Shown piece by piece: positions 9,895 to 47,640 of a stretch of 64,000 nucleotides of DNA. The position numbers and the translations under genes were made by a program. Position 1 is the first letter of the stretch. Each line of letters starts with the position of its first letter. Origin of the DNA: Gammaproteobacteria bacterium (lineage in GTDB: Bacteria; Pseudomonadota; Gammaproteobacteria; QNFE01); contig QNFE01000004.1 of assembly GCA_003645455.1 (NCBI GenBank), forward strand, positions 3,406-67,405, written 5' to 3'. Below the pieces are notes generated by a model. That model made no database searches, was not told the DNA's origin, and was given only the letters and a program-made list of their open reading frames with translations.

Positions 9895-10478
9895 AGGTTT
9901 GTTAGAATATTTTTGACAGGTTTAAAAGTCTTGCGATGATGAGGACATACACCATATTTTTGTAATGTTAATAGATGATTTTTAGTAGGATAACCCTTGT
10001 GTTTATCAAAACCATATAACGGATATTGTCGATGAATATCCATCATCAAATTATCTCGGTGCACTTTGGCAATAATAGAGGCAGCACTTATCGCAGGCTC
10101 GGTTAAATCACCTTTGATAATTGCCACAGCTTGCATTTGCACCTCTGGGATATGAACCCCATCAACCAAAATTTTATGAGGCTGGATTGTTAGTTTTTCA
10201 ACAGCTATTTTCATCGCCATAAGACTTGCTTGTAAAATATTTATTTTATCTATAATTTTTTCATTTACAGCGGCAATGCTCCAACAAATGGATTTTTTTT
10301 TAATCTCTGTGGCAAGAAACTCTCGTTTTTTAGCGGATAATTTTTTAGAATCAGTCAACCCCATAATTTTATTTTTATAATCCAAAATAACAGCGGCAGC
10401 GACCACCGCACCTGCAAGCGGTCCGCGACCTGCCTCATCCACTCCTGCGATAATAAAATTTGAATTTAAGCTGGACAT
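9891..10478 (-). CDS. rnhB: Ribonuclease HII
   Basis: AGVDEAGRGPLAGAVVAAAVIL motif at the expected size. Confidence 0.9.
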   Translation of the reverse strand: MSSLNSNFIIAGVDEAGRGPLAGAVVAAAVILDYKNKIMGLTDSKKLSAKKREFLATEIKKKSICWSIAAVNEKIIDKINILQASLMAMKIAVEKLTIQPHKILVDGVHIPEVQMQAVAIIKGDLTEPAISAASIIAKVHRDNLMMDIHRQYPLYGFDKHKGYPTKNHLLTLQKYGVCPHHRKTFKPVKNILTNL

Positions 10479-11396
10479 TTAAAATTTAAAATGCTGTGGC
10501 AGATCGGCTACAAAATTATATTTTTTACTGATTATAATTTGGCTTGAATGTAAGTATAAATTATTTTTTTGCTCGTTTTCAAAGTTTTTATTATATTTAT
10601 CATCCCCTATGATGGGGTGTTTAAAGTGGGATAAATGCAGACGAATTTGGTGGGTTCTACCGGTTTCAATTCTAATTTTTAAGAGACTTGTATTATTGTT
10701 GATATATTGACAATTTAAAATATGGGTAATCGCTTGTTTGCCTTTGGGGTTGATTTGCATAAATTTCTCACCATTTCGCAGATTTTTTTTATCCATGGCT
10801 TTGTCAATTTTAATAATTTTTTTATCCCATAAACCTGCCACACGAGCATAATAAATTTTTTCAATTTTACGAGATTTAATTAGAGTCTGAATCTTTTTTA
10901 AAAAATGATAATTTTTTGCTATCAATAACACCCCGGTTGTTTTTTTATCCAAACGATGAATTAACTCATAATCATTATTGATACCAGATTTGATTGCCTC
11001 AATAATCCCCCATTTTATATTGCTACCGCCGTGGACACTAATATTAGCAGGTTTGTTTAAAACCAAAATATCGTCATCCTCAAAGATTATAGATTTTTTT
11101 ATTAAATCTACCATCGCAGAGGGGGCTTTTTTGGTAGCTGTATCGGTCATTCTAACAGGTGGTATCCGCACCATATCGCCTGTTTTAATTTTATAAAGTG
11201 GTTTACATCTTTTGGAATTTACTCGCACCTGTCCGGTCCTGATTATTTTATAAATCAAGGATTTAGGAGCAGGTTTCAAAAAATTTAATAAAAAATTATC
11301 TAACCTTTGTCCTGCCTGCTTGTTATAAACTTCAATATTTTTAACTGATGAATTTGTCATTATTGTATTTAATTTTTTTAAAACAATATTATACAT
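10479..11396 (-). CDS. RluA-family 23S rRNA pseudouridine synthase (RluC/RluD-like, with N-terminal S4 domain)
   Basis: The catalytic motif HRLDKKTTGVLLIAKN is present. The S4-like N-terminus is (QRLDNFL..IRTGQVRVN). Confidence 0.8.
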   Translation of the reverse strand: MYNIVLKKLNTIMTNSSVKNIEVYNKQAGQRLDNFLLNFLKPAPKSLIYKIIRTGQVRVNSKRCKPLYKIKTGDMVRIPPVRMTDTATKKAPSAMVDLIKKSIIFEDDDILVLNKPANISVHGGSNIKWGIIEAIKSGINNDYELIHRLDKKTTGVLLIAKNYHFLKKIQTLIKSRKIEKIYYARVAGLWDKKIIKIDKAMDKKNLRNGEKFMQINPKGKQAITHILNCQYINNNTSLLKIRIETGRTHQIRLHLSHFKHPIIGDDKYNKNFENEQKNNLYLHSSQIIISKKYNFVADLPQHFKF

Positions 11397-11484
11397 AATT
11401 GTCAGATAAGAATATTAAAAATCTTAAACTAACTGGTTTTATAAAAAATACATTATGAATTGGATCTTATGGTTAAAAGTGGGT

Positions 11485-11781
11485 TTACAACTGGGTTATC
11501 TTGCCATATAGGTTTTTAGCCATGGTTTCAACCTTGGTATATTCGTTCTGTTGCAAAAGCCTCAACACTATGATCATTTTCGTTATCGACAATCTGCCCC
11601 TACATTTATGTTTTTTTGGTTTCACGACTCTGCCCCATATTGATTCGTATATTTTTGGACTGTGGCATGGGTTCTCATATCCCAAAGCTTTACCGACTTG
11701 ATTAGTTGTTAAATAAAAGTCATTGTTAGGTTGAATGACATCCATATTTTCGTCATTGAAGTTAGCTGTAAGTTTGTTCAT
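11485..11781 (-). CDS. Hypothetical protein (possible Bro-N/KilA-N fragment)
   Basis: The N-terminal LTTNQVGKALGYENP weakly resembles a Bro-N start. The rest of the protein is not recognisable. Confidence 0.3.
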   Translation of the reverse strand: MNKLTANFNDENMDVIQPNNDFYLTTNQVGKALGYENPCHSPKIYESIWGRVVKPKKHKCRGRLSITKMIIVLRLLQQNEYTKVETMAKNLYGKITQL

Positions 11782-11952
11782 GGTAATTTATCTCTAAAAA
11801 AATATTGTTGTTGCCTCGGATTCAAATGCGACAATCCCCGTCATAACGAGGCGGACGAGAATAATTGATAATTAACAGTTATTAGTTTAAATTCCGCTAT
11901 TAATTTTTAACTAATAACTATATAAACTGACGTGGTTATTTCTTGTTGCTGT

Positions 11953-12067
11953 CGTCACTGCGAGCGAACTTGTGAGCGTGGCAGTCTCTTTGGGTGTCCG
12001 TATACTACGATAAGATTGCCGCGTCATTTGCCTTGTGGCAAACTCCTCGCAATGACGGATTCTTTTT
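11953..12067. repeat. MITE-like element, family 2, copy A (~115 bp, 12-bp imperfect terminal inverted repeats CGTCACTGCGAG / CTCGCAATGACG)
   Basis: It shares termini and a GTGGCAGTCTCT core with the copy at 39732..39828. It ends in ATTCTTTTTTTG. Confidence 0.6.
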
Positions 12068-12223
12068 TTGTTTTTAAATTTTAAAAAGGCTATTATGATT
12101 GATAAAAAACCCACTAACATTAACCAAATTTTAGACATAATATTCCTCATCAATAATTTTTAAAATAAAACCTCTTCGCTGGGTTATCTTGTAACAAAAT
12201 AAAAGAAAAGAATAAAATATATT

Positions 12224-12255
12224 GAGGCCTTTGCATAAAACCTGAAAAGGTCTCA
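12224..12255. repeat. Miniature (32 bp) derivative of MITE family 1 (TIR-TIR hairpin TGAGGCCTTTGCAT...TGAAAAGGTCTCA)
   Basis: Both ends match the family-1 terminal inverted repeat. It is flanked by ATATAT on both sides. Confidence 0.5.
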
Positions 12256-12371
12256 ATATATTCAATATTTGTTAAAAACTATCCTTAAATTATGAAATCT
12301 TGACAGAATTTGTAAGTGACGGTTAAAAATTTATGCTACAATAGTCATTTTTTGTTTTGGAGAGAACTTTT

Positions 12372-14315
12372 ATGAGTGCTAAAAAAATTTATTCCGTGCC
12401 ATCAAACATTGCTGATAATGCAATAATAAATGCTAAAAATTATGAATCTATGTATCAAGAATCGATAGATAATCCAAACAAATTTTGGACTCAACAGGCA
12501 GAAAAATTTATAGATTGGAGACAAAAATGGGATGACAAAAATGTTATGGAATCTGATTTTAACACAGGAGACATAAAATGGTTTGCAGGGGCAAAATTAA
12601 ATGTCTCTTATAATTGTTTGGATCGGCATCTGGCAACTCGTGGCAATCAAACCGCTTTAATCTGGGAATCAGATGATCCTAATGTAGATAAAAAAATAAC
12701 CTATAAAGAATTACACTCCCAGGTGTGTAAATTCGCCAATTCATTAAAAAAACGTGGAGTCAAAAAAGGCGATAGGGTCTGCATTTATATGCCGATGATT
12801 GTTGAAGCCTCGGTGGCTATGTTGGCATGCACAAGAATCGGTGCGGTGCACTCTGTCGTTTTTGGTGGTTTCTCGCCAGAGGCATTAAAAGGGCGGATTT
12901 TAGATTCTGACTGCCAAACGATAATTACCGCCGATGAGGGAGTTCGTGGTGGTAAAGCCGTGCCTTTGAAGGCTAATGTTGATAAAGCGGTTGAAGGTTG
13001 CCCTGATGTTAAAAATGTCATAGTCGTTAAAAGAACCGGTGGCAATGTCAATTGGAATAAAAAACACGATGTTTGGTTGCATGATTTATATAATGAGGTT
13101 GATGATAAATGTGAGCCTGTTTGGATGGATGCCGAAGATCCATTGTTTATTTTATATACCTCAGGTTCAACCGGCAAACCCAAAGGGGTGTTGCATACCA
13201 CAGGTGGTTATTTGTTGTTTGCCGCTATGACGCATAAATACTCTTTTGATTATAAAGACGGCGAGATTTATTGGTGCACAGCTGATGTCGGTTGGGTTAC
13301 CGGACATACTTATATAGTTTATGGTCCGTTGGCAAACGGGGCAATTTCTATGATGTTTGAGGGCATCCCCACTTATCCTGATGCTGGACGTTTTTGGCAA
13401 GTGGTTGAAAAACACAAGGTAAATATTTTTTACACGGCGCCGACTGCTTTGCGAGCTTTGATGGCAGTAGGTGATGATTTTGTTAAAAAACATGATCGTT
13501 CTTCTTTGCGGATTTTGGGGACTGTGGGCGAGCCGATAAATCCCGAAGCTTGGCAGTGGTATTATAATATCGTAGGTGATAAAAAATGTCCGATAGTTGA
13601 TACTTGGTGGCAAACAGAAACAGGCGGACATCTTATCACACCACTACCAGGAGCTACTGATTTAAAACCAGGTTCTGCCTCTAAACCATTTTTTGGCATA
13701 ATACCTGCGATAGTGGACGAACATGGCAATGAACTCAAAGGCGAGTGTGAGGGCAACCTTATTATCAAACAATCGTGGCCAGGGCAAATGCGAACTATAT
13801 ATGGCGATCACCAACGATTCAAAGAAACTTATTTTTCAACCTATCCTGGCAATTATTTTACAGGTGACGGATGCAAGCGTGATAAAGATGGTTACTATTG
13901 GATTACAGGCCGTGTTGATGATGTATTAAATGTATCAGGACACAGGCTTGGCACTGCTGAAATTGAATCATCATTAGTGTTGCATCCTGCGGTGGCAGAA
14001 TCTGCTATTGTTGGTTTTCCACATGACATAAAAGGACAAGGGATTTATGCTTATGTTACCTTGATGAGCGACATTGAGGCAACTGATGATTTAATTACAG
14101 AGTTAGTCAATCATGTCAGAACTGACATAGGTCCAATTGCCAAAATTGATATTCTGCAATGGGCGCCTGCTTTGCCAAAAACTCGCTCTGGTAAAATTAT
14201 GCGCCGTATTTTACGCAAAATAGCTGAAAATTCTTTGGATAGTATGGGTGATATTTCAACCTTGGCTGACCCATCTGTGGTGGATAGTTTAATCAATAAT
14301 CGCAAAAATAGATGA
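12372..14315 (+). CDS. acs: Acetyl-CoA synthetase
   Basis: ~648 aa AMP-forming ligase with the characteristic Acs N-terminus ([15 protein letters not shown]) and the motifs [12 protein letters not shown] and the C-terminal SGKIMRR. An RBS (GGAGA) lies 8 nt upstream of ATG 12372; the ORF-track start at 12357 is TTG. Confidence 0.9.
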
Positions 14316-39838: not shown

Positions 39839-41377
39839 TTAATCAAAAACTACTCTGAATCCTATGTCATAACTTGTCAAAGTAGGATGCAAATATCTTT
39901 TGGAGGTTAGAATTGTATTGGATTTATCAAGTGCAAAACTACCGCCCTTGATAACGGCTTGGATATTTTGTTTTGACAAATTAAAGGTAGAGGTCCACTC
40001 CGATACATTCGCCCCCATCGCATATAAACCCAGCAAAGAAATGTCGTTTTTGTCTGATTTTATATCAATGGGATGATTTATATTATTTTCTCTGCTGTGA
40101 GTTATGATAGGCGGATTATTAGAATTTGGATAAATAAATTTATGTAAATTGACACTTTGCATCCACTGCTCTGATGTCGGCAACCTGCCACCTGCAAATT
40201 TGGCAAAAGAATAAGCACAATACCAGTTAATATTTGTGATGGGTCGGCGGGGATTCTTTAATTGTTGTTGCCAATTATTAGGCTTGCACTTGTTGTTTTT
40301 TGGTTGAGATTCGTTGGCATAAAAATTTAATTTGACAAAAGTATTATTTAAAAATTTTTGATAATCTGCAATGCTTATCTCATATTTGCTGATTTTAAAA
40401 TTATTTTTTATTCTATCTTGTTTGATGATGGAGGCTGCATCCTGATAGGATAGTTGGCTGATATGTGGCAACAGAGCGGGCATTTTTGCTTGCTTTTTCA
40501 AACCTATCGTGTATTCCCCATCTGGAATTTTTATTAAATTTAAATTTGTTCCCCAGGCAGTTGTTTTTAAATTTTCATCATAAACACATCTAAACCCCAC
40601 AAAAACGGAGCGATATTTTGGATCTTCTGGGCGATAAACAGGGTTCATAGTCCAAAGTTCGGCAGGTTTTAAATATGAATTACCACCGCTTATGATAGGG
40701 TCGCCGTGAGGATATGAACCCATAGTCCACTCTGATACCATTGTAGACATATTCTCAACACCATCTGGGGTATTGTTGGCAGGGTGAGCGCCGATTTTAG
40801 CACCGGCATTTAAAATTGGGTCATCATAAACATAAGAGCTATTATCAAATTTATCACCCCAGGCATAGGTGCGAGATGTTTTACCGCCGGCAATTGCCAT
40901 CCATTCATAAGTTGCAGGTAATCTGCCACCTGTGTTGTGACAATAACTTGTAACATCATAAAAACTTATATTATTAGCGGCAACATAATTTTCACCTAAG
41001 ATTTTATGGTTTTGTGAGAGGGTTTTTGGTTTAAAATCTTGCCCTACCCCTATTACTTTTCTGATTTTATTTTTTTTGCTATATTCCATAAACTTATAAA
41101 AATCCCCTTGACGAACCTCATATTTATCAATATATATATTTTTTAATTTATAAGTTGTAGGTGGAATTGATAAGGATTTTTGTAAGATTTCTGATTTTTT
41201 AAGATAGGCAAAATTATCTAATAAAATTTTATCAATAGGGTGAATTTTTGTGGTTTTTTTATTATTACCGATTTTTATTTTTTCAATATCAATCAATAAT
41301 CCTGCAAATAAATCTGTTAATAAAAAGATAAAAAATATGAGAGTTATAGTAGCAATTGTGGCATATATTTTTTTCAT
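39839..41377 (-). CDS. Membrane-anchored protein with two tandem FGE-sulfatase (SUMF1/formylglycine-generating-enzyme-like, GldK/PorK-type) domains
   Basis: N-terminal TM. The two repeats are ...YEVRQGDFYKFM...SFYDVTSYCHNTGGRLPATYEWMAIAGG...GFRCVYD and ...YEISIADYQKFL...NWYCAYSFAKFAGGRLPTSEQWMQSV...GFRVVFD, both matching the FGE-sulfatase domain pattern. Confidence 0.65.
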   Translation of the reverse strand: MKKIYATIATITLIFFIFLLTDLFAGLLIDIEKIKIGNNKKTTKIHPIDKILLDNFAYLKKSEILQKSLSIPPTTYKLKNIYIDKYEVRQGDFYKFMEYSKKNKIRKVIGVGQDFKPKTLSQNHKILGENYVAANNISFYDVTSYCHNTGGRLPATYEWMAIAGGKTSRTYAWGDKFDNSSYVYDDPILNAGAKIGAHPANNTPDGVENMSTMVSEWTMGSYPHGDPIISGGNSYLKPAELWTMNPVYRPEDPKYRSVFVGFRCVYDENLKTTAWGTNLNLIKIPDGEYTIGLKKQAKMPALLPHISQLSYQDAASIIKQDRIKNNFKISKYEISIADYQKFLNNTFVKLNFYANESQPKNNKCKPNNWQQQLKNPRRPITNINWYCAYSFAKFAGGRLPTSEQWMQSVNLHKFIYPNSNNPPIITHSRENNINHPIDIKSDKNDISLLGLYAMGANVSEWTSTFNLSKQNIQAVIKGGSFALDKSNTILTSKRYLHPTLTSYDIGFRVVFD

Positions 41378-42993
41378 TTTTTTTGCCTACGAATTAAAAA
41401 GAAAATAGTAAAAGTTATAAATAAAATAAAATATAACCATAAATGAAATGATGATAAATAATTTTTACTATCACTTGATTTTAATATTAACTCTTGATTG
41501 TTAATTTTTAAATCATTTTCTAAGTTTTTAATATCAAGTTTATTTTTATTTATTTTGGCAAAAATATGTCCTAAGGATATATCTTCTATATTTTTGTCAA
41601 TCAAAGCTATGACTTGCCAATTATTGCGATTTTTGATTTTTATAGGCACTAATAAAATATTATTTTTAATAATCTCATTTTCAATTCCTTGATAAAAATT
41701 ATTATAGGGATATAACGATAAAGACAATAAATTATCGGCGAAAATATAAGGTTTGTTGTTTTTTTGATAATATAAATCAAAACCTCGGATGGGAACATTA
41801 AATGGTAGTTTTATAAAATTTTTGCCGCCTTTTTTACGATTATAAATCTGTAATTTTTTTTGCTTGGTTTGGCGTATTGATTTTATTTTTCGTAAAATTA
41901 GATTGACCTCTTGATTATAAATTGAGTTATTAACAAATTTTAAAGGGTCTTTTAAGTGGGCTTGCATTTGTTGTAAAATATCTTTAATGTTAAAATTAAA
42001 AAATTTATTTTTATTTTCAATCTCTTGGGCTTGATGTAAATATAACAATAAAAAATTTAACATAAATCTCTCATATGAAACCTGCGAGCTATTTAATTTT
42101 TTAAATTTTTGTTTAAAAGATAACTCGGCTTTGCCTTGCTCTCCTGCAATTTTTATTTTTAACTTTCGGTTGCTGAAACCTTTTATACCATGTTCTTTTT
42201 GTTGGCGTTTTTTAGCAAATGATTGAGTTAGTGCCTCGGATAAGGATAGGTTTTGTGAATCTCTTTTTTGTTTGCCAATATCGGATGGAATCCTATCATC
42301 AAATGGCGAGTTTTGCATTCTGTCAAAGTCAAAATCTGTATTATTTGGTAGGCTATGAGAAAAATCCGGTTTATCCTCTGTTGGTTTTTCTGTTGTTTCC
42401 GTTTGTTTGTCAAGGGTAAAATTAGTTTTTGTATTTTTTTGTTTTTTGTTTTTCAAACGAGCATTTGCCATATCCTCGCCATTATAATGCCAATGACGAA
42501 TTTTTAAGTTTTGCTCTTTGATAGCTGCCATCGTTAAATAATATAACCTGATGCTATAAATATCTGCTCTTAGCAATAATTTTTGGGGGCTTTTTAATGA
42601 CTTTAAAAATAATTCAAATTTATTGTTTTTTTGCAATAATTGATTACGAGTTATCGTTAAATTTAAATTAGGGTTAGTTTTTTCATCACCTAATATTCTA
42701 ATAAAATTATCATACATTTCAATAATAGGGGACTGTGGATTTCGTTTGTGATTATAGTCATGCAAAACCGCAGGTGATGAGCTTGGCAAATCATTGACGA
42801 TTATTTTATTTAATATGTCTTGTGCCATAACCACTTGCATATCTTTGTTTTGTTGAATTTGCACCTCGGCTTGGTGTTGTTTGACAACCAAAGATAGGAT
42901 TATTAAAATCAAAATTACTGCCACCCCATTTGCCAGAATATCTGCCAAAGCAATTCCGACAACGGATGGCAAATTTTGAGGGTTGAATTTCAT
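41374..42993 (-). CDS. Hypothetical 539-aa lysine-rich protein with N-terminal ExbD/MotB-like TM segment (with Asp) and C-terminal TM segment
   Basis: N-terminal TM VGIALADILANGVAVILILIIL, central low-complexity K/N/Q-rich region, and C-terminal TM LWLYFILFITFTIFFLI. Overlapping stops/starts indicate translational coupling with its neighbours. Confidence 0.45.
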   Translation of the reverse strand: MKFNPQNLPSVVGIALADILANGVAVILILIILSLVVKQHQAEVQIQQNKDMQVVMAQDILNKIIVNDLPSSSPAVLHDYNHKRNPQSPIIEMYDNFIRILGDEKTNPNLNLTITRNQLLQKNNKFELFLKSLKSPQKLLLRADIYSIRLYYLTMAAIKEQNLKIRHWHYNGEDMANARLKNKKQKNTKTNFTLDKQTETTEKPTEDKPDFSHSLPNNTDFDFDRMQNSPFDDRIPSDIGKQKRDSQNLSLSEALTQSFAKKRQQKEHGIKGFSNRKLKIKIAGEQGKAELSFKQKFKKLNSSQVSYERFMLNFLLLYLHQAQEIENKNKFFNFNIKDILQQMQAHLKDPLKFVNNSIYNQEVNLILRKIKSIRQTKQKKLQIYNRKKGGKNFIKLPFNVPIRGFDLYYQKNNKPYIFADNLLSLSLYPYNNFYQGIENEIIKNNILLVPIKIKNRNNWQVIALIDKNIEDISLGHIFAKINKNKLDIKNLENDLKINNQELILKSSDSKNYLSSFHLWLYFILFITFTIFFLIRRQKK

Positions 42994-43006
42994 TTTGAGA
43001 TAGTTC

Positions 43007-43516
43007 TCATTTTTTTATGACTTTTTTAATGTGGGGCGGAATGTCTTTGATATTAACAGATTTTAATAATTCTTGATTAGCTATAATCCAGCCGATAGAT
43101 ATTTTTTTGCCGGCGAATATAGCCATAAGGCAATCACGCGATTTTTTCATTGTGCCTGCTCCGCCCTCTAAAATTGCAAAAATAATTTGTTGTTTTGGTT
43201 GGGAATAAATATTTTTTGCATACGAGACAAAAGCACTATTATTTTTGCAAATATTTGCTCTTTTAACGCTTTTTTGATCTTCAATAATGTGTAATTTATC
43301 TTTAAAACTCAGGACAACAAAACCCTCTCCATCAGAGCCCCAACTTATATTATAGATGCCATCGCTGTTATCTATATCGGCTAATCGCTGGGCTGTCGTG
43401 GATTCACTAATTAGATTAAACAACAAAAACAACACCAGCAACAAAGCGAATGCACCGCCGAAAATCTCAACTATCGCATAGTTATCACCCTCGTCATTAT
43501 TGCGATATTTTCTCAT
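43007..43516 (-). CDS. ExbD/TolR/MotB-like single-TM protein (putative stator partner)
   Basis: A short cytoplasmic N-terminus is followed by a TM with an acidic residue (AIVEIFGGAFALLLVLFLLF). The C-terminal IIFAILEGGAGTMKKSRDCLMAIFAGKKISIGWI resembles the ExbD periplasmic fold. Its start overlaps the MotA-like gene by 4 nt. Confidence 0.45.
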   Translation of the reverse strand: MRKYRNNDEGDNYAIVEIFGGAFALLLVLFLLFNLISESTTAQRLADIDNSDGIYNISWGSDGEGFVVLSFKDKLHIIEDQKSVKRANICKNNSAFVSYAKNIYSQPKQQIIFAILEGGAGTMKKSRDCLMAIFAGKKISIGWIIANQELLKSVNIKDIPPHIKKVIKK

Positions 43517-44496
43517 TTTTGCAAGTTTTGCTTTTGCAGATCACAAAAAAATTGTTCCTCCTTTTTTTGTAATAAGGTTTGCAATAATGCCAAAACTACA
43601 CTCAACGATAAAGCGATTAAAGTGGTATCAAAAGCAATGCCAAGCGGGGCAATAGCGGATGCGAGATCTGAGCCCATCTGCGACAGCCCATCTCCTCCTG
43701 CTATGATTTTTTGCAAGCCTTCGGATGCCAAAGAAATCCCCAAAACCGTGCCGATAAATCCTAATAATGGAATCGCCCAGTTAATGTATTTTAAAGTTTG
43801 ATAAAAATTATTATTTTGTTGCCAGATAACCTCAACAACATCATTAAAATTGGTTTTGTTAATTTTGATTGGTGATTTTTGTTGTTTTTTCAAGGATAAT
43901 AATTTGCCAAGCAACAACAACAACCCCCAGTTGAATAACACCAGACACAATGGCGGAATTATGCCCCTATCTAACATTTTACTATTTAAAAAACTCAAAA
44001 AATCAGGCAACATATGAGATTGAATTAAAGACAGCAACAAAGCGGACAAAATAATAGCGATTGACAAAGAAAATAACAACGGCGGCCCATTTAAAAAATT
44101 ATCTAAATATTCGTTAAATACTTTATTATTTTTTTCGTCAAATAATCTGATTAGAGCAAAGTTTATCAATACACATAAAATTATCAATACCAAAGAAAAA
44201 TGGAATCTCAAATCAATTTGAATTTTATCAGTTTGAATAATATTAAACACAACATCAAAAACAAAAATTGAGGCGAATAAAATACTAAACAAAGACAACA
44301 AATTCATTGAATGTTGCCAAAATTTGTCTTGATATTTTTTTAAACTACTCACAAAAAACCAAACAATCGGCAAAATTGTCGCTATAACAATTAATGCCGT
44401 TGTAGATATCTCAAGCAATCCTGCAACAACAAAAGCCCCTGCCAGAGAGATAATTAAATTCAATCCTAAGTTTAAATACGGATATATTTTTTTCAT
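43513..44496 (-). CDS. MotA/TolQ/ExbB proton-channel family protein
   Basis: The C-terminal INWAIPLLGFIGTVLGISLASEGLQ...LASAIAPLGIAFDTTLIALSLSVV matches the MotA_ExbB signature. It has ~6 TM helices and no long cytoplasmic tail. Confidence 0.7.
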   Translation of the reverse strand: MKKIYPYLNLGLNLIISLAGAFVVAGLLEISTTALIVIATILPIVWFFVSSLKKYQDKFWQHSMNLLSLFSILFASIFVFDVVFNIIQTDKIQIDLRFHFSLVLIILCVLINFALIRLFDEKNNKVFNEYLDNFLNGPPLLFSLSIAIILSALLLSLIQSHMLPDFLSFLNSKMLDRGIIPPLCLVLFNWGLLLLLGKLLSLKKQQKSPIKINKTNFNDVVEVIWQQNNNFYQTLKYINWAIPLLGFIGTVLGISLASEGLQKIIAGGDGLSQMGSDLASAIAPLGIAFDTTLIALSLSVVLALLQTLLQKKEEQFFCDLQKQNLQK

Positions 44497-44516: not shown

Positions 44517-45479
44517 TTATACAATCATTTCAAGTCGGTTTTTGTTATCTTTAATTTTGTCTAATCTATATTGAGCGATTTTTATATATTCTTTATTAAG
44601 TTCAATTCCGATATAATTTCTATCCATCATTTTACAGGCTACGGCTGTTGTGCCTGATCCTAAAAATGGATCTAAAACAACTGCTCCTGTTTTGGTGGTA
44701 AGAGATATAAGATATTTACAGATTGATAGGGGCTTGACTGTTTTGTGGGTATTGCCTGCTCCCTTTTCTTTTTTGTTTGGTTTGCCTGTTAAAAACGCTC
44801 TGTCAATAATGGGGCTTATATTTTGAGAAGAGACAACATTCGCAGGGTGCATATTTTGATCCTTGCCGTGTTTTATAGAGGTATTTACCAACGATACATT
44901 ATGTCGCATCATATTGTTTAAAAAAGTTTTGTCAACTGGTTTTTGTGCCATGGCGATGGGCTCAAAACAGGATTTTACCTGTGGGGTTTTCCAGCCACTT
45001 AAAGTTTTTATCAATCTGTTTTTTTCAAAATCTGACATATCTAATTTTTTAATGAAATGGTTAAGGCTCATACCTTTTGGTTGGTTCATTGTGTATAACC
45101 ACATAAAACAGTCACGAATATCAAAACCTGCATCTTCTATCGCACATGCCATTCTATGATATAAACGAGGGCTTGAAAATGAAAAGAAAAATCCACCTGG
45201 TTTTAAAACCCTGTATAATTCTTCTGATATTTTTAAATACCACTTATAAAATCGCTTGCCTTGGTTTTTATCAAACTTCATACCAGCTGGCAGTGATTTA
45301 ATCGTGTGTAAATTTTTATCATTATGCACTCTATCAACATTCCATTTATTATCCATTTTATCTAAAAAATATGGTGGATCTGTCAGCACAATATCCACAG
45401 AATTTTCTTGGATATTTTTTAAAAACTCTAGTGAATCTTGATTTATTATTTTGTTTATATATTCGTTATTTTTTAACAT
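44517..45479 (-). CDS. DNA methyltransferase, beta-class N4-cytosine/N6-adenine family (DPPY then FxGxG)
   Basis: Motif IV VLTDPPYF is N-terminal and motif I VVLDPFLGSGTT C-terminal. This order indicates a PF01555-type MTase. Confidence 0.8.
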   Translation of the reverse strand: MLKNNEYINKIINQDSLEFLKNIQENSVDIVLTDPPYFLDKMDNKWNVDRVHNDKNLHTIKSLPAGMKFDKNQGKRFYKWYLKISEELYRVLKPGGFFFSFSSPRLYHRMACAIEDAGFDIRDCFMWLYTMNQPKGMSLNHFIKKLDMSDFEKNRLIKTLSGWKTPQVKSCFEPIAMAQKPVDKTFLNNMMRHNVSLVNTSIKHGKDQNMHPANVVSSQNISPIIDRAFLTGKPNKKEKGAGNTHKTVKPLSICKYLISLTTKTGAVVLDPFLGSGTTAVACKMMDRNYIGIELNKEYIKIAQYRLDKIKDNKNRLEMIV

Positions 45480-46179
45480 TGAATTTTTGCTCCAATAGTT
45501 TATATGCTTTTTTCTGTACTTCTATTGTACTTCTTAAAATTACTTTTGCATTCGCTAATTTAATTACTCTACCTTTTCTGTCATATTCCCAACGATTTCT
45601 GTCGGCTTGATTGCACTTTTGACATTGTGGAATTATGTTGCCGGCAATAAGTGGCTTTTGTGGATTCATATGGGCTTTTTGGAGTTTGGTTTTAGTTGCC
45701 GGCCAATGAAAATGAGGTTTGTTTTCAACAGAGCCACAGGTCGCACATCTGTTTTGATATTTTCTTTTTATTTCATCAAAATCATCGCCAATATCTTCCA
45801 ATCTACGGTTAGATTTAAAATCAGGATAGGGTTGTTCTAAGGTGTATAATTTGTATTCTCCTCTTTTTAAGTTTTCAACAATATTGTCTCTGCCGCCTGC
45901 GACTATCCACCAACCTTTTTGAGCCCCAAGATGTCTTGCTTGTTGCATGTCATTAGTGTTTGGATAATATTGTCTGATAAATTGAGTTAATTCGTTTTTT
46001 GATGCTACTTTTGTTTGTGGATAATTTTGAGCAAGATAGATTAAAACAAGAGCGTCTTTGGTGTAGCCTGTTTTATATTTAAGGTTAGGTAATTTTACTC
46101 CCACATCTTTTAAGAATTTACCATGGTAAGATTTGATTGTATTGTAGGTTTTATTAATAGTGCTATCTGTTAGTTTCAT
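45466..46179 (-). CDS. HNH-family endonuclease (putative Type II restriction enzyme)
   Basis: C-terminal CATCGS...H..N...CQKCNQADRNRW is a CxxC...H...N...CxxC HNH/zinc-finger nuclease pattern. The N-terminal ~130 aa is a putative DNA-recognition domain. It overlaps the downstream MTase by 14 nt. Confidence 0.65.
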   Translation of the reverse strand: MKLTDSTINKTYNTIKSYHGKFLKDVGVKLPNLKYKTGYTKDALVLIYLAQNYPQTKVASKNELTQFIRQYYPNTNDMQQARHLGAQKGWWIVAGGRDNIVENLKRGEYKLYTLEQPYPDFKSNRRLEDIGDDFDEIKRKYQNRCATCGSVENKPHFHWPATKTKLQKAHMNPQKPLIAGNIIPQCQKCNQADRNRWEYDRKGRVIKLANAKVILRSTIEVQKKAYKLLEQKFNVKK

Positions 46180-46224
46180 ATTTTTATTGTTGTTTAACTT
46201 TTAATGTTATTTTTTGTTGTATTA

Positions 46225-47640
46225 TCATTTACCAAATGTTAGTTTTTCTTTTAATAATTCGTCTTGTATTTTTACTTTATTCATTAGGTATTCCATAGGT
46301 CTGTCGCCTTTGGTTGTGTTGCAATGTCCGCATAATAATTGATAGTTTTCATAATAATCGCCGCCGCCTTTGGCTTTTGGTATTATGTGATCTATGTGAA
46401 AATCTTTGATTAAATATTCGTGGTTGCATCCTTTGCATATGCCTTTTTGTTCTTTATGTAATCTCTCTTTTATGCTGAAACTTGGAAGCTCTTTTTTAAT
46501 GTCATCTCTTTTTGGGATATCTACTCGATGAATAAAATTGCTAAATAAACCTGCATCATCGCTTAGGCGATTAACCAAAACTTCGGCGGCTTGTTTTTCA
46601 ATATCTATGCCGATCCATTTTCGGTTTAATTGTTGGGCTGCCACACAGGCTGTGGCACAACCACAAAATGGATCAAAAATTATATCACCCTCGCGACTGC
46701 TGGCTTTAATTATTCTATTTAATAAAGCTATTGGTTTTTGAGTGGGGTAGCCGGTGCGCTCGCCTCCCATAGCTCTTGGTATATCAATCCAGTTATTATC
46801 TAATGTTTTGCCATCATAATCATCAAAATATTTGCGTCGCTCTAATTTGCCATCATCTTTTATGACGATATTGCCTTTTTGATATTCCTCTTCTAACCTT
46901 TGTTTGGATAGTCTCCAACCAGATAAATGAGGGTTATTAAATCCTCGCCATGCGTAACATAAATTTGGTCTATCTCCCATTGATGGATTGCGCCAAATAT
47001 GAGCCGAATCATCATAATATCTTTTGCCTTTGTTATCAATTTTGTTGAATTTTTTAAGCATTACAGGATCATTTTCTTTGAGTTTTATCGTAGGATTTAA
47101 ATGATATTCATCACTTTTTGTATAGAATAATATAGTGTCTGTGCTGGCACCGAATTTTTTTGCTTTAAATTGACTGCCTTTCGCCCCTGTCATTCTTTGC
47201 CAAATTATTTCATTTCTAAAATTACTTTTGCCAAAAATTTTGTCTAAAACTATTTTCAAATAGTGTGAGGCTGTGGGGTCCACATGTAAATAAAAACTGC
47301 CTGTTGGTTTTAAAACTCGGTGCATTTCTATAATTCTTTGAGTCATATAAGTGATATATGCCATCATAGCTTTGCCGTGGATTCCTTCGATGGATTGAAT
47401 AAAATTAACCAAAAAAGGATAGTTGCTAAACATTTTTTCAAGATAAGATTCGTTAACATCCTCCCAACTCCACATATCAGAAAAACTCGCCCCTGCGGAC
47501 TTGCTACCAATGGGGGCAGAATAAAAACGTTTGGAATTAAAAGGTGGGTCCAAATATATTAAATCAATGCTCTCGTTATTCAAACCATTTAAAATAAATA
47601 GGTTGTCGTTGGTATATAAAGTGTTTATAAATTTATTCAT
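46225..47640 (-). CDS. DNA methyltransferase (beta-class, DPPF) fused to C-terminal HNH endonuclease domain
   Basis: IYLDPPFNS (motif IV) comes before IIFDPFCGCATA (motif I). The C-terminal CKGCNHEY...HIDHIIPKAKGG..YENYQLLCGHCNTTKG is a clear HNH motif. Confidence 0.8.
   Translation of the reverse strand: MNKFINTLYTNDNLFILNGLNNESIDLIYLDPPFNSKRFYSAPIGSKSAGASFSDMWSWEDVNESYLEKMFSNYPFLVNFIQSIEGIHGKAMMAYITYMTQRIIEMHRVLKPTGSFYLHVDPTASHYLKIVLDKIFGKSNFRNEIIWQRMTGAKGSQFKAKKFGASTDTILFYTKSDEYHLNPTIKLKENDPVMLKKFNKIDNKGKRYYDDSAHIWRNPSMGDRPNLCYAWRGFNNPHLSGWRLSKQRLEEEYQKGNIVIKDDGKLERRKYFDDYDGKTLDNNWIDIPRAMGGERTGYPTQKPIALLNRIIKASSREGDIIFDPFCGCATACVAAQQLNRKWIGIDIEKQAAEVLVNRLSDDAGLFSNFIHRVDIPKRDDIKKELPSFSIKERLHKEQKGICKGCNHEYLIKDFHIDHIIPKAKGGGDYYENYQLLCGHCNTTKGDRPMEYLMNKVKIQDELLKEKLTFGK

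Follow-up and report, generated by a model that had tools for sequence, protein, structure and literature searches.

A putative Type II restriction-modification pair beside a solitary methyltransferase-HNH fusion gene in a gammaproteobacterial contig

The genes at the locus

The stretch of DNA analysed here, referred to as the window, covers 64,000 nucleotides (nt) of a contig from a Gammaproteobacteria bacterium, and all coordinates are those of the window. At positions 44517-47640, it carries three co-oriented genes on the minus strand, labelled A, B and C, which encode two methyltransferases and two proteins, or protein parts, of the HNH nuclease type. The genes and their domains are the following.

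46225..47640, minus strand: gene A, 471 amino acids (aa), a methyltransferase-HNH fusion (open reading frame list and Pfam)
46579..47568, minus strand: methyltransferase domain of A, residues 25-354 (Pfam, motifs and alignment)
46300..46437, minus strand: HNH domain of A, residues 402-447 (Pfam, NCBIfam and conservation)
45466..46179, minus strand: gene B, 237 aa, a putative Type II restriction endonuclease (open reading frame, AlphaFold (AF2) model, Foldseek and neighbourhood)
45820..46179, minus strand: winged-helix domain of B, residues ~1-120 (AF2, Foldseek and conservation)
45598..45747, minus strand: HNH core of B, residues 145-194 (conservation, AF2 and weak profile matches)
44517..45479, minus strand: gene C, 320 aa, the predicted cognate beta-class methyltransferase (open reading frame, Pfam and PADLOC)

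The genes are tightly packed. A lies 43 nt downstream of pth, 45 nt separate A from B, the reading frames of B and C overlap by 14 nt, and a gap of 20 nt follows the end of C before a MotA/ExbB-like gene (44496..43513). An earlier note on this DNA had given the same orientation, the sizes of 471, 237 and 320 aa, the overlap and the 20-nt gap, and the list of open reading frames agrees with it exactly; the gene calls of the public metagenome-assembled contig (Gammaproteobacteria bacterium, DRQ51_01635/01640) match these frames as well. The GC content of the three genes is 0.32-0.34, the same as that of the flanking sequence, and thus there is no compositional sign of a recent acquisition. No terminators are predicted between the genes, and promoter and terminator scans of the locus give counts no higher than shuffled sequence. 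As the earlier note had also stated, the locus is restriction-modification-like and has no Hsd-type signature; it likewise carries no signature of Type I or Type III systems.

Two beta-class methyltransferases

C matches the Pfam family N6_N4_Mtase over residues 28-303 (E = 4e-39) and the PADLOC model MTase_II over its full length (E = 7e-52), and it contains the motifs DPPY and LDPFLGSGT, the latter being an FxGxG-type motif I. In A, the same Pfam family covers residues 25-354 (E = 3e-44), with motif IV (DPPF) at residues 31-34, a central target-recognition domain (TRD) at about residues 140-290 and motif I (FDPFCGCAT) at about residues 322-331. The motif order IV-TRD-I places both enzymes in the beta class, so that the two beta-class methyltransferases of the DPPF and DPPY types proposed earlier are borne out by Pfam and by motif order. 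The closest solved relatives of the two methyltransferases are DpnA, CcrM and M.MboIIA, and N4-cytosine enzymes are also found among their PDB matches. An aspartate instead of a serine in the DPPY/DPPF motif points to N6-methyladenine, which is the product predicted for both A and C from these motifs alone. The target-recognition regions of the two proteins are unrelated, and therefore the enzymes probably methylate different sites, and not the two strands of one site.

B combines a winged helix with a predicted HNH nuclease core

B belongs to no curated family, and searches of Pfam, NCBIfam and the PDB sequences give no match. Its close homologues (60-79% identity) number 882, and a profile search recovers 486 representative clusters at 50% identity. 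Two AlphaFold models of the protein were made, the first from 40 close homologues and the second from a diverse alignment obtained in the representative search. The winged-helix domain is confident in both of them (block predicted local distance difference test, pLDDT, mostly >85), and it carries a nearly invariant recognition-helix motif, QQxRHLxxQxGW, at residues 79-90. Foldseek matches this N-terminal domain to the winged helices of Zur/Fur, forkhead, HSF and PadR proteins.

The HNH core of B consists of C145-x2-C148, H170, N181 and C186-x2-C189-N190. Across 50 relatives with 27-72% identity, no variation is seen at C145, C148, H170, P184, C186, C189 and N190, and at least 90% of the relatives have N181. 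The spacing N-x4-C-x2-C-N is identical in B and in the canonical HNH domain of A. In the first AlphaFold model, the nuclease half has a pLDDT of about 50 and Foldseek gave winged-helix matches only; the second model reaches a pLDDT of 92.9. It shows a beta-beta-alpha-metal finger behind the N-terminal winged helix, composed of strands 166-170 and 182-186 and helix 187-192, in which H170 ends the first strand and N181 stands just before the second. The top Foldseek match of B in the PDB is a Cas9 HNH domain (E = 0.019, probability 1.0), followed by EcoKMcrA, CBASS Cap5 and PacI, and by winged-helix proteins such as Zur, while HNH endonucleases rank top among viral models. The profile of B aligns to a Cas9 HNH domain at E = 0.12-0.23, and sub-threshold Pfam HNH matches appear in 4/50 and 20/40 members of the B family (best E = 0.0023-0.0093).

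Several results weigh against a nuclease assignment for B. The Foldseek matches have weak E-values, at best 0.019, B itself has no Pfam HNH match, not even a sub-threshold one, and a profile-profile comparison (hhalign) of B with the HNH domain of A returned no valid alignment; the assignment therefore rests on motifs and predicted structure. As modelled, the HNH fold of B is well supported, but not proven. The earlier identification of B as an HNH endonuclease thus has on its side the invariant residues, the AF2 fold and the Foldseek matches at their weak E-values, and the possibility that the HNH motifs are degenerate is answered by the catalytic residues, which are intact in both A and B.

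Conserved pairing of B and C

The genomic neighbourhood of B was compared in 80 loci with B relatives, taken from species-representative genomes that all belong to uncultured organisms. These loci come from Patescibacteria, Saccharibacteria, Bdellovibrionales, Altiarchaeum, Omnitrophota, Planctomycetota, Elusimicrobiota and Gammaproteobacteria. In 76 of them, the B-like gene is followed by a C-like methyltransferase gene that overlaps it or begins within 21 nt; 71 of these have the C-like gene (57-65% identity) and five have its start before the contig ends. Of the 72 junctions measured, 41 have the two frames overlapping by 4-23 nt, and at the other 31 the genes are at most 21 nt apart. The four remaining loci comprise one that is disrupted, two with no C-like match and one, L067, with a displaced fragment of C. 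Look-ups of single loci, including those with the closest relatives of B and C (74% and 70% identity), agree with the pairing.

In L067 (positions 10001-13529), the B-like gene breaks off at residue 214, and 2.4 kb further downstream stands the C-terminal half of a C-like gene, an arrangement that points to an insertion separating the two genes. The loci with no C-like gene are L050, from a member of the Gracilibacteria that perhaps uses an alternative genetic code, and L073.

The same pair, with the nuclease gene first and the methyltransferase gene second, is also found on Thermus plasmids, where the nuclease is 42% and the methyltransferase 50% identical to the proteins of the window, both over their full length.

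L174:3818-5606: B-C pair on plasmid pTthSNM1-7d of Thermus thermophilus SNM1-7
L175:3710-5490: B-C pair on plasmid pTCCB09 of Thermus sp. CCB_US3_UF1

The Thermus pair adjoins ParA-type partition genes and toxin-antitoxin genes, and its B homologue is annotated as a hypothetical protein. These plasmids are the only source of B homologues found in cultured organisms.

Identities of 60-79% across bacterial and archaeal phyla indicate that B and C have spread horizontally as a unit. The conserved linkage and the plasmid-borne pairs in Thermus argue that this unit is mobile and self-sufficient, with the hallmarks of a Type II system, and the constant order with overlapping or abutting frames argues for co-transcription and probably for translational coupling. 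In such a system, C would methylate a short site, with N6-methyladenine as the product predicted from its DPPY motif. B would bind the same site through its winged-helix domain when the site is unmethylated and would cut it, probably as a homodimer on a palindrome, with an HNH active site of the beta-beta-alpha-metal type that is stabilised by zinc.

B could also be seen as a modification-dependent Type IV endonuclease that is not cognate to C. It resembles, by their description, the N6-methyladenine-sensing winged-helix-HNH (wH-HNH) enzymes toxic to Dam+ Escherichia coli, which have the same two-domain architecture and a similar size of 224-283 aa (PMC11037411), and the depletion of GATC in the window (observed/expected ratio, O/E, of 0.39) was counted for this reading too. 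However, the published wH-HNH enzymes are mostly stand-alone proteins that need N6-methyladenine in their DNA, and 87% of them have no methyltransferase among the three nearest neighbours on each side (PMC11037411), whereas B has an abutting or overlapping methyltransferase gene in 76 of 80 loci. Translational coupling of a methylation-dependent nuclease with an adenine methylase would be self-destructive if the two specificities ever coincided, and Foldseek did not pick DpnI-type winged helices for B. A Type IV role for B is therefore very unlikely.

A is independent of B and C

The earlier note had treated A, B and C as one restriction-modification triad, and the comparison of loci speaks against this. 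No A-like gene lies within 10 kb on either side in any of the 80 B/C loci, and no B-like gene is found in any of the 24 other loci that carry a methyltransferase-HNH fusion. In all 24, the A-like gene is solitary, without B or C, among unrelated housekeeping genes. Examples of its hosts are Entomospira culicis, a relative of the marine alphaproteobacterium HIMB114 and several metagenomic contigs. The closest relative of A (79% identity) and those of B and C (74% and 70%) sit in separate contexts, and the combination of A, B and C is not seen elsewhere in this sample. Together with the solitary nature of A and the unrelated TRDs of A and C, this makes the triad a juxtaposition. The locus thus probably consists of two independent methylation/restriction units that are adjacent by chance, namely an orthodox Type II pair, B and C, and a solitary methyltransferase-HNH protein, A.

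If the three genes nevertheless formed a single Type IIS-like system, each methyltransferase would protect one strand and each HNH nuclease would cut one. The co-orientation of the genes, their short spacings (45 nt and -14 nt) and the lack of a predicted terminator between them are in favour of it, and Type IIS systems with two methyltransferases and HNH nucleases are known in the MnlI, HphI and Hin4II families (PMC2441816). Such a system is nonetheless highly improbable given the counts above, which hold for the closest relatives too: B and C alone are conserved together, and A is solitary in cultured and uncultured genomes. The asymmetric target that the earlier note had deduced from the presence of two methyltransferases finds no comparative support, and it is not favoured by the unrelated TRDs. 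What weighs against the separation of A from B and C is the tight packing without a predicted terminator, which means that co-expression and some functional interplay of the three genes may occur in this organism.

The methyltransferase-HNH fusion protein A

The C-terminal HNH domain that the earlier note had assigned to A is found by Pfam at residues 402-447 (E = 8e-12), where HNH_5 matches as well, and the C-terminus also has NCBIfam matches to the HNH regions of Cas9d and IscB. Its residues are C402-x2-C405, D417-H418, N432 and C437-x2-C440-N441. In 40 family members, C402, C405, D417, N432, C437, C440, N441 and K444 are invariant, and H418 is kept in at least 90%. Both domains of A are retained in all 120 homologues listed (53-79% identity). 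Methyltransferase relatives that lack the HNH domain (36-46% identity) occur widely in actinophages, plasmids and metagenomes; a metagenome scan for relatives of A mostly yields such proteins, with the fusion in 18 of the 80 loci listed.

The PADLOC matches of A are to Type II and Type III methyltransferase models, the best being Type II. Its score for the CcrM equivalog of NCBIfam is 79 bits, against a cut-off of 830 bits. Most of the length of the methyltransferase part aligns with Type III Mod structures (6k0w_B, residues 105-442, E = 5e-8). A Type III Mod function was considered for A and rejected, there being no gene for a Res helicase-nuclease adjacent to it in the window or in the homologous loci.

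One further relative, P0253 (704 aa), is attributed to the freshwater mussel Potamilus streckersoni; in it, an inositol-monophosphatase domain is joined to a methyltransferase-HNH part 69% identical to A. It is most likely a bacterial contamination or a mis-joined gene model in a eukaryotic assembly.

Tandem arrays and exchange of recognition domains

The A-type gene is tandemly repeated in four loci. The largest array, L172:6001-11921 (ENA contig ctg73691, 794 kb), contains four direct tandem methyltransferase-HNH genes, which encode 478, 431, 467 and 467 aa and recur with a period of 1.42-1.53 kb. Their N-terminal (residues 1-139) and C-terminal (residues 290-467) frames share 96-99% DNA identity, and between them stand three different central TRDs, one of which is of the type present in A of the window. 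This locus looks like a specificity-cassette array that is kept up by gene conversion. In the cultured spirochaete Entomospira culicis (GCA_011812985.1, L005:3725-6434), two tandem copies of 409 and 477 aa have frames that are 96-97% identical in DNA over the stretches compared and TRDs that are unrelated. Since this organism has been cultured, the arrays are unlikely to be an assembly artefact. The other two loci hold more diverged tandem pairs. Differences between tandem paralogues are confined to the TRD.

Exchange of recognition modules between otherwise homogenised copies is typical of enzymes whose one TRD directs modification as well as restriction, such as Type I, Type III and the MmeI-type IIG enzymes (PMC2731913). 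Of the readings of A, a single-chain restriction-modification enzyme is the likeliest by analogy, if still a tentative one; it is favoured by the swapping of TRDs, the strictly kept, intact HNH domain and the scattered occurrence in different phyla. A would then be a variant of single-chain restriction-modification logic that is uncharacterised as a nuclease-methylase. As such an enzyme, A would find its site with its own TRD and would need neither B nor C. It would methylate the site in the host DNA and keep up the modification after replication, and on unmodified incoming DNA its tethered HNH domain would nick or cut nearby. The solved beta-class methyltransferases M.MboIIA, CcrM and EcoP15I Mod are dimers, and a dimer of A would bring two HNH domains to one site, possibly resulting in a double-strand cut. 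The methylated base, the chemistry of cleavage, the dimerisation and, above all, a restriction role of the HNH domain of A are what we infer here.

Two points weigh against a restriction role for A. Literature searches found no published restriction enzyme made of a beta-class methyltransferase and an HNH domain, nor any published description or experimental study of methyltransferase-HNH fusions in general, and the data on A are also fitted by an orphan methylase that carries a nuclease for another purpose. A would then be an orphan or housekeeping methyltransferase whose HNH domain serves homing-like spread, gene conversion or nicking in repair or recombination. It speaks for this that in many lineages, a streamlined marine alphaproteobacterium among them, A-family genes occur as single genes with housekeeping neighbours, that the homogenised frames of the tandem arrays imply frequent recombination or gene conversion, and that the HNH-less relatives (36-46% identity) are common in phages and plasmids. 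On the other hand, the swapping of TRDs between otherwise identical copies is a hallmark of specificity diversification in defence enzymes, the family is scattered across phyla at 55-79% identity in the manner of a mobile defence gene, and the loci examined show neither a conserved insertion site nor a target for homing. An orphan enzyme of this kind, the main rival, is rather unlikely, and the reading of A as a single-chain restriction-modification enzyme is preferred.

Recognition-site statistics

Under-representation of short palindromes can be compared between the window and the B/C loci. In the window, several 4-bp palindromes are very strongly depleted under a maximal-order Markov model, with O/E values of 0.15 for GTAC, 0.16 for CTAG, 0.17 for GGCC, 0.23 for TCGA, 0.34 for GCGC, 0.37 for ACGT and 0.39 for GATC. 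This suggests a long exposure to several restriction systems with 4-bp sites, of which A, B and C could explain few.

Pooled Markov O/E values were calculated for 1.09 Mb from the 80 B/C loci, and no single 4-6 bp palindrome stands out in them that would give the site of B and C. When the B/C contigs (L010-L089) are compared with control contigs (L005-L009 and L092-L171), TCGA has a median O/E of 0.60 against 1.03 in the controls and ACGT one of 0.61 against 0.97. Of all 4-mers, these two show the largest difference in depletion between the two sets of contigs (p ~1e-11 to 1e-13), and they do so in both GC strata. The two depletions do not correlate with one another, neither is seen in 27 of 67 loci, and taxonomy acts as a confounder. 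TCGA and ACGT are thus weak leads, which may reflect the specificity of B and C or other restriction systems that are common in Patescibacteria.

Comparison with known systems

The arrangement of B and C, a small nuclease gene beside a separate methyltransferase gene, is that of KpnI, Hpy99I, NlaIII/IceA1-HpyI, SphI and PacI, and the predicted HNH core of B has the Cys4 motif and zinc stabilisation of the HNH nucleases of Type IIP. B differs from those HNH restriction families that could be tested in having no Pfam or NCBIfam match, no PDB relative and an N-terminal winged helix.

The NlaIII/HpyI systems, with an HNH nuclease of ~230 aa and a CATG-specific adenine methyltransferase of ~330 aa, are similar to B and C in sizes and gene order. 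The ICEA/NlaIII family is defined by PF05315 (PMC5714182), which gives no match in B or in 40 of its homologues at E-values up to 10, and CATG is only mildly depleted (O/E of 0.62 in the window and 0.83 in the pooled loci); NlaIII/IceA1-HpyI was therefore rejected as a model for the pair. HpyAXII/PabI, which recognises GTAC, was rejected as a model for B, as it has a half-pipe fold and no Cys4 motif.

A recalls the Type IIC/IIG enzymes, such as the MmeI family, DrdV and the Thermus TspGWI/TaqII family, in which nuclease, methyltransferase and recognition functions reside in one chain encoded by a solitary gene, and whose specificity changes through the recognition module alone (PMC2582602, PMC2731913, PMC2700111). 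Those enzymes, ~900-1100 aa long, have a PD-(D/E)XK nuclease at the N-terminus and the TRD at the C-terminus, and their methyltransferase is of the gamma class. In A, which is 471 aa long, the methyltransferase is of the beta class, the TRD is internal and the HNH domain is C-terminal; A thus differs from all characterised single-chain members in the types of its nuclease and methyltransferase modules. The beta-class core of A is like that of Type III Mod proteins such as EcoP15I Mod, and of CcrM, M.MboIIA and DpnA, and its central TRD is variable and flanked by conserved ends, as in mod alleles. Unlike Type III enzymes, A has no Res partner, and its best PADLOC matches are Type II.

Genes downstream of C

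A four-gene operon lies directly downstream of C (39839-44496, minus strand). Its first gene encodes a 327-aa membrane protein with a weak C-terminal match to MotA/ExbB; matches of this protein to ZorA models are also weak and confined to the same MotA/ExbB-like region. The operon further encodes a 169-aa protein and a Lys-rich 539-aa protein, both without a family match, as well as a 512-aa protein with two FGE-sulfatase (SUMF1-like) domains. It is not recognisable as a Zorya system. The pairing of a motor-like with an FGE-like protein may recall GldK/GldL-type machinery.

Significance

The locus is a small restriction-modification islet and not a new kind of system. Judged by their sequences, B and C are an ordinary kind of system whose enzymes come from an unstudied family. 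The B family is large, is covered by no Pfam or NCBIfam model, lacks a solved structure and is concentrated in uncultured Patescibacteria, Bdellovibrionales and archaea. Its homologues on Thermus plasmids make it experimentally accessible and could yield a thermostable enzyme.

The tandem arrays with swapped TRDs are the most interesting lead and lie outside the window. A bolder and more doubtful proposal is that A-type proteins form a widespread class of minimal single-polypeptide restriction-modification enzymes of ~400-480 aa, which change their specificity by exchanging TRD cassettes between nearly identical tandem copies, and that A of the window would sit beside a member of a wH-HNH enzyme family found across candidate phyla radiation bacteria and archaea. 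The importance of A is more conceptual: if its HNH domain restricts DNA, these proteins would be among the smallest self-contained restriction-modification enzymes, assembled from different modules, and the arrays would show how such enzymes diversify their specificity.

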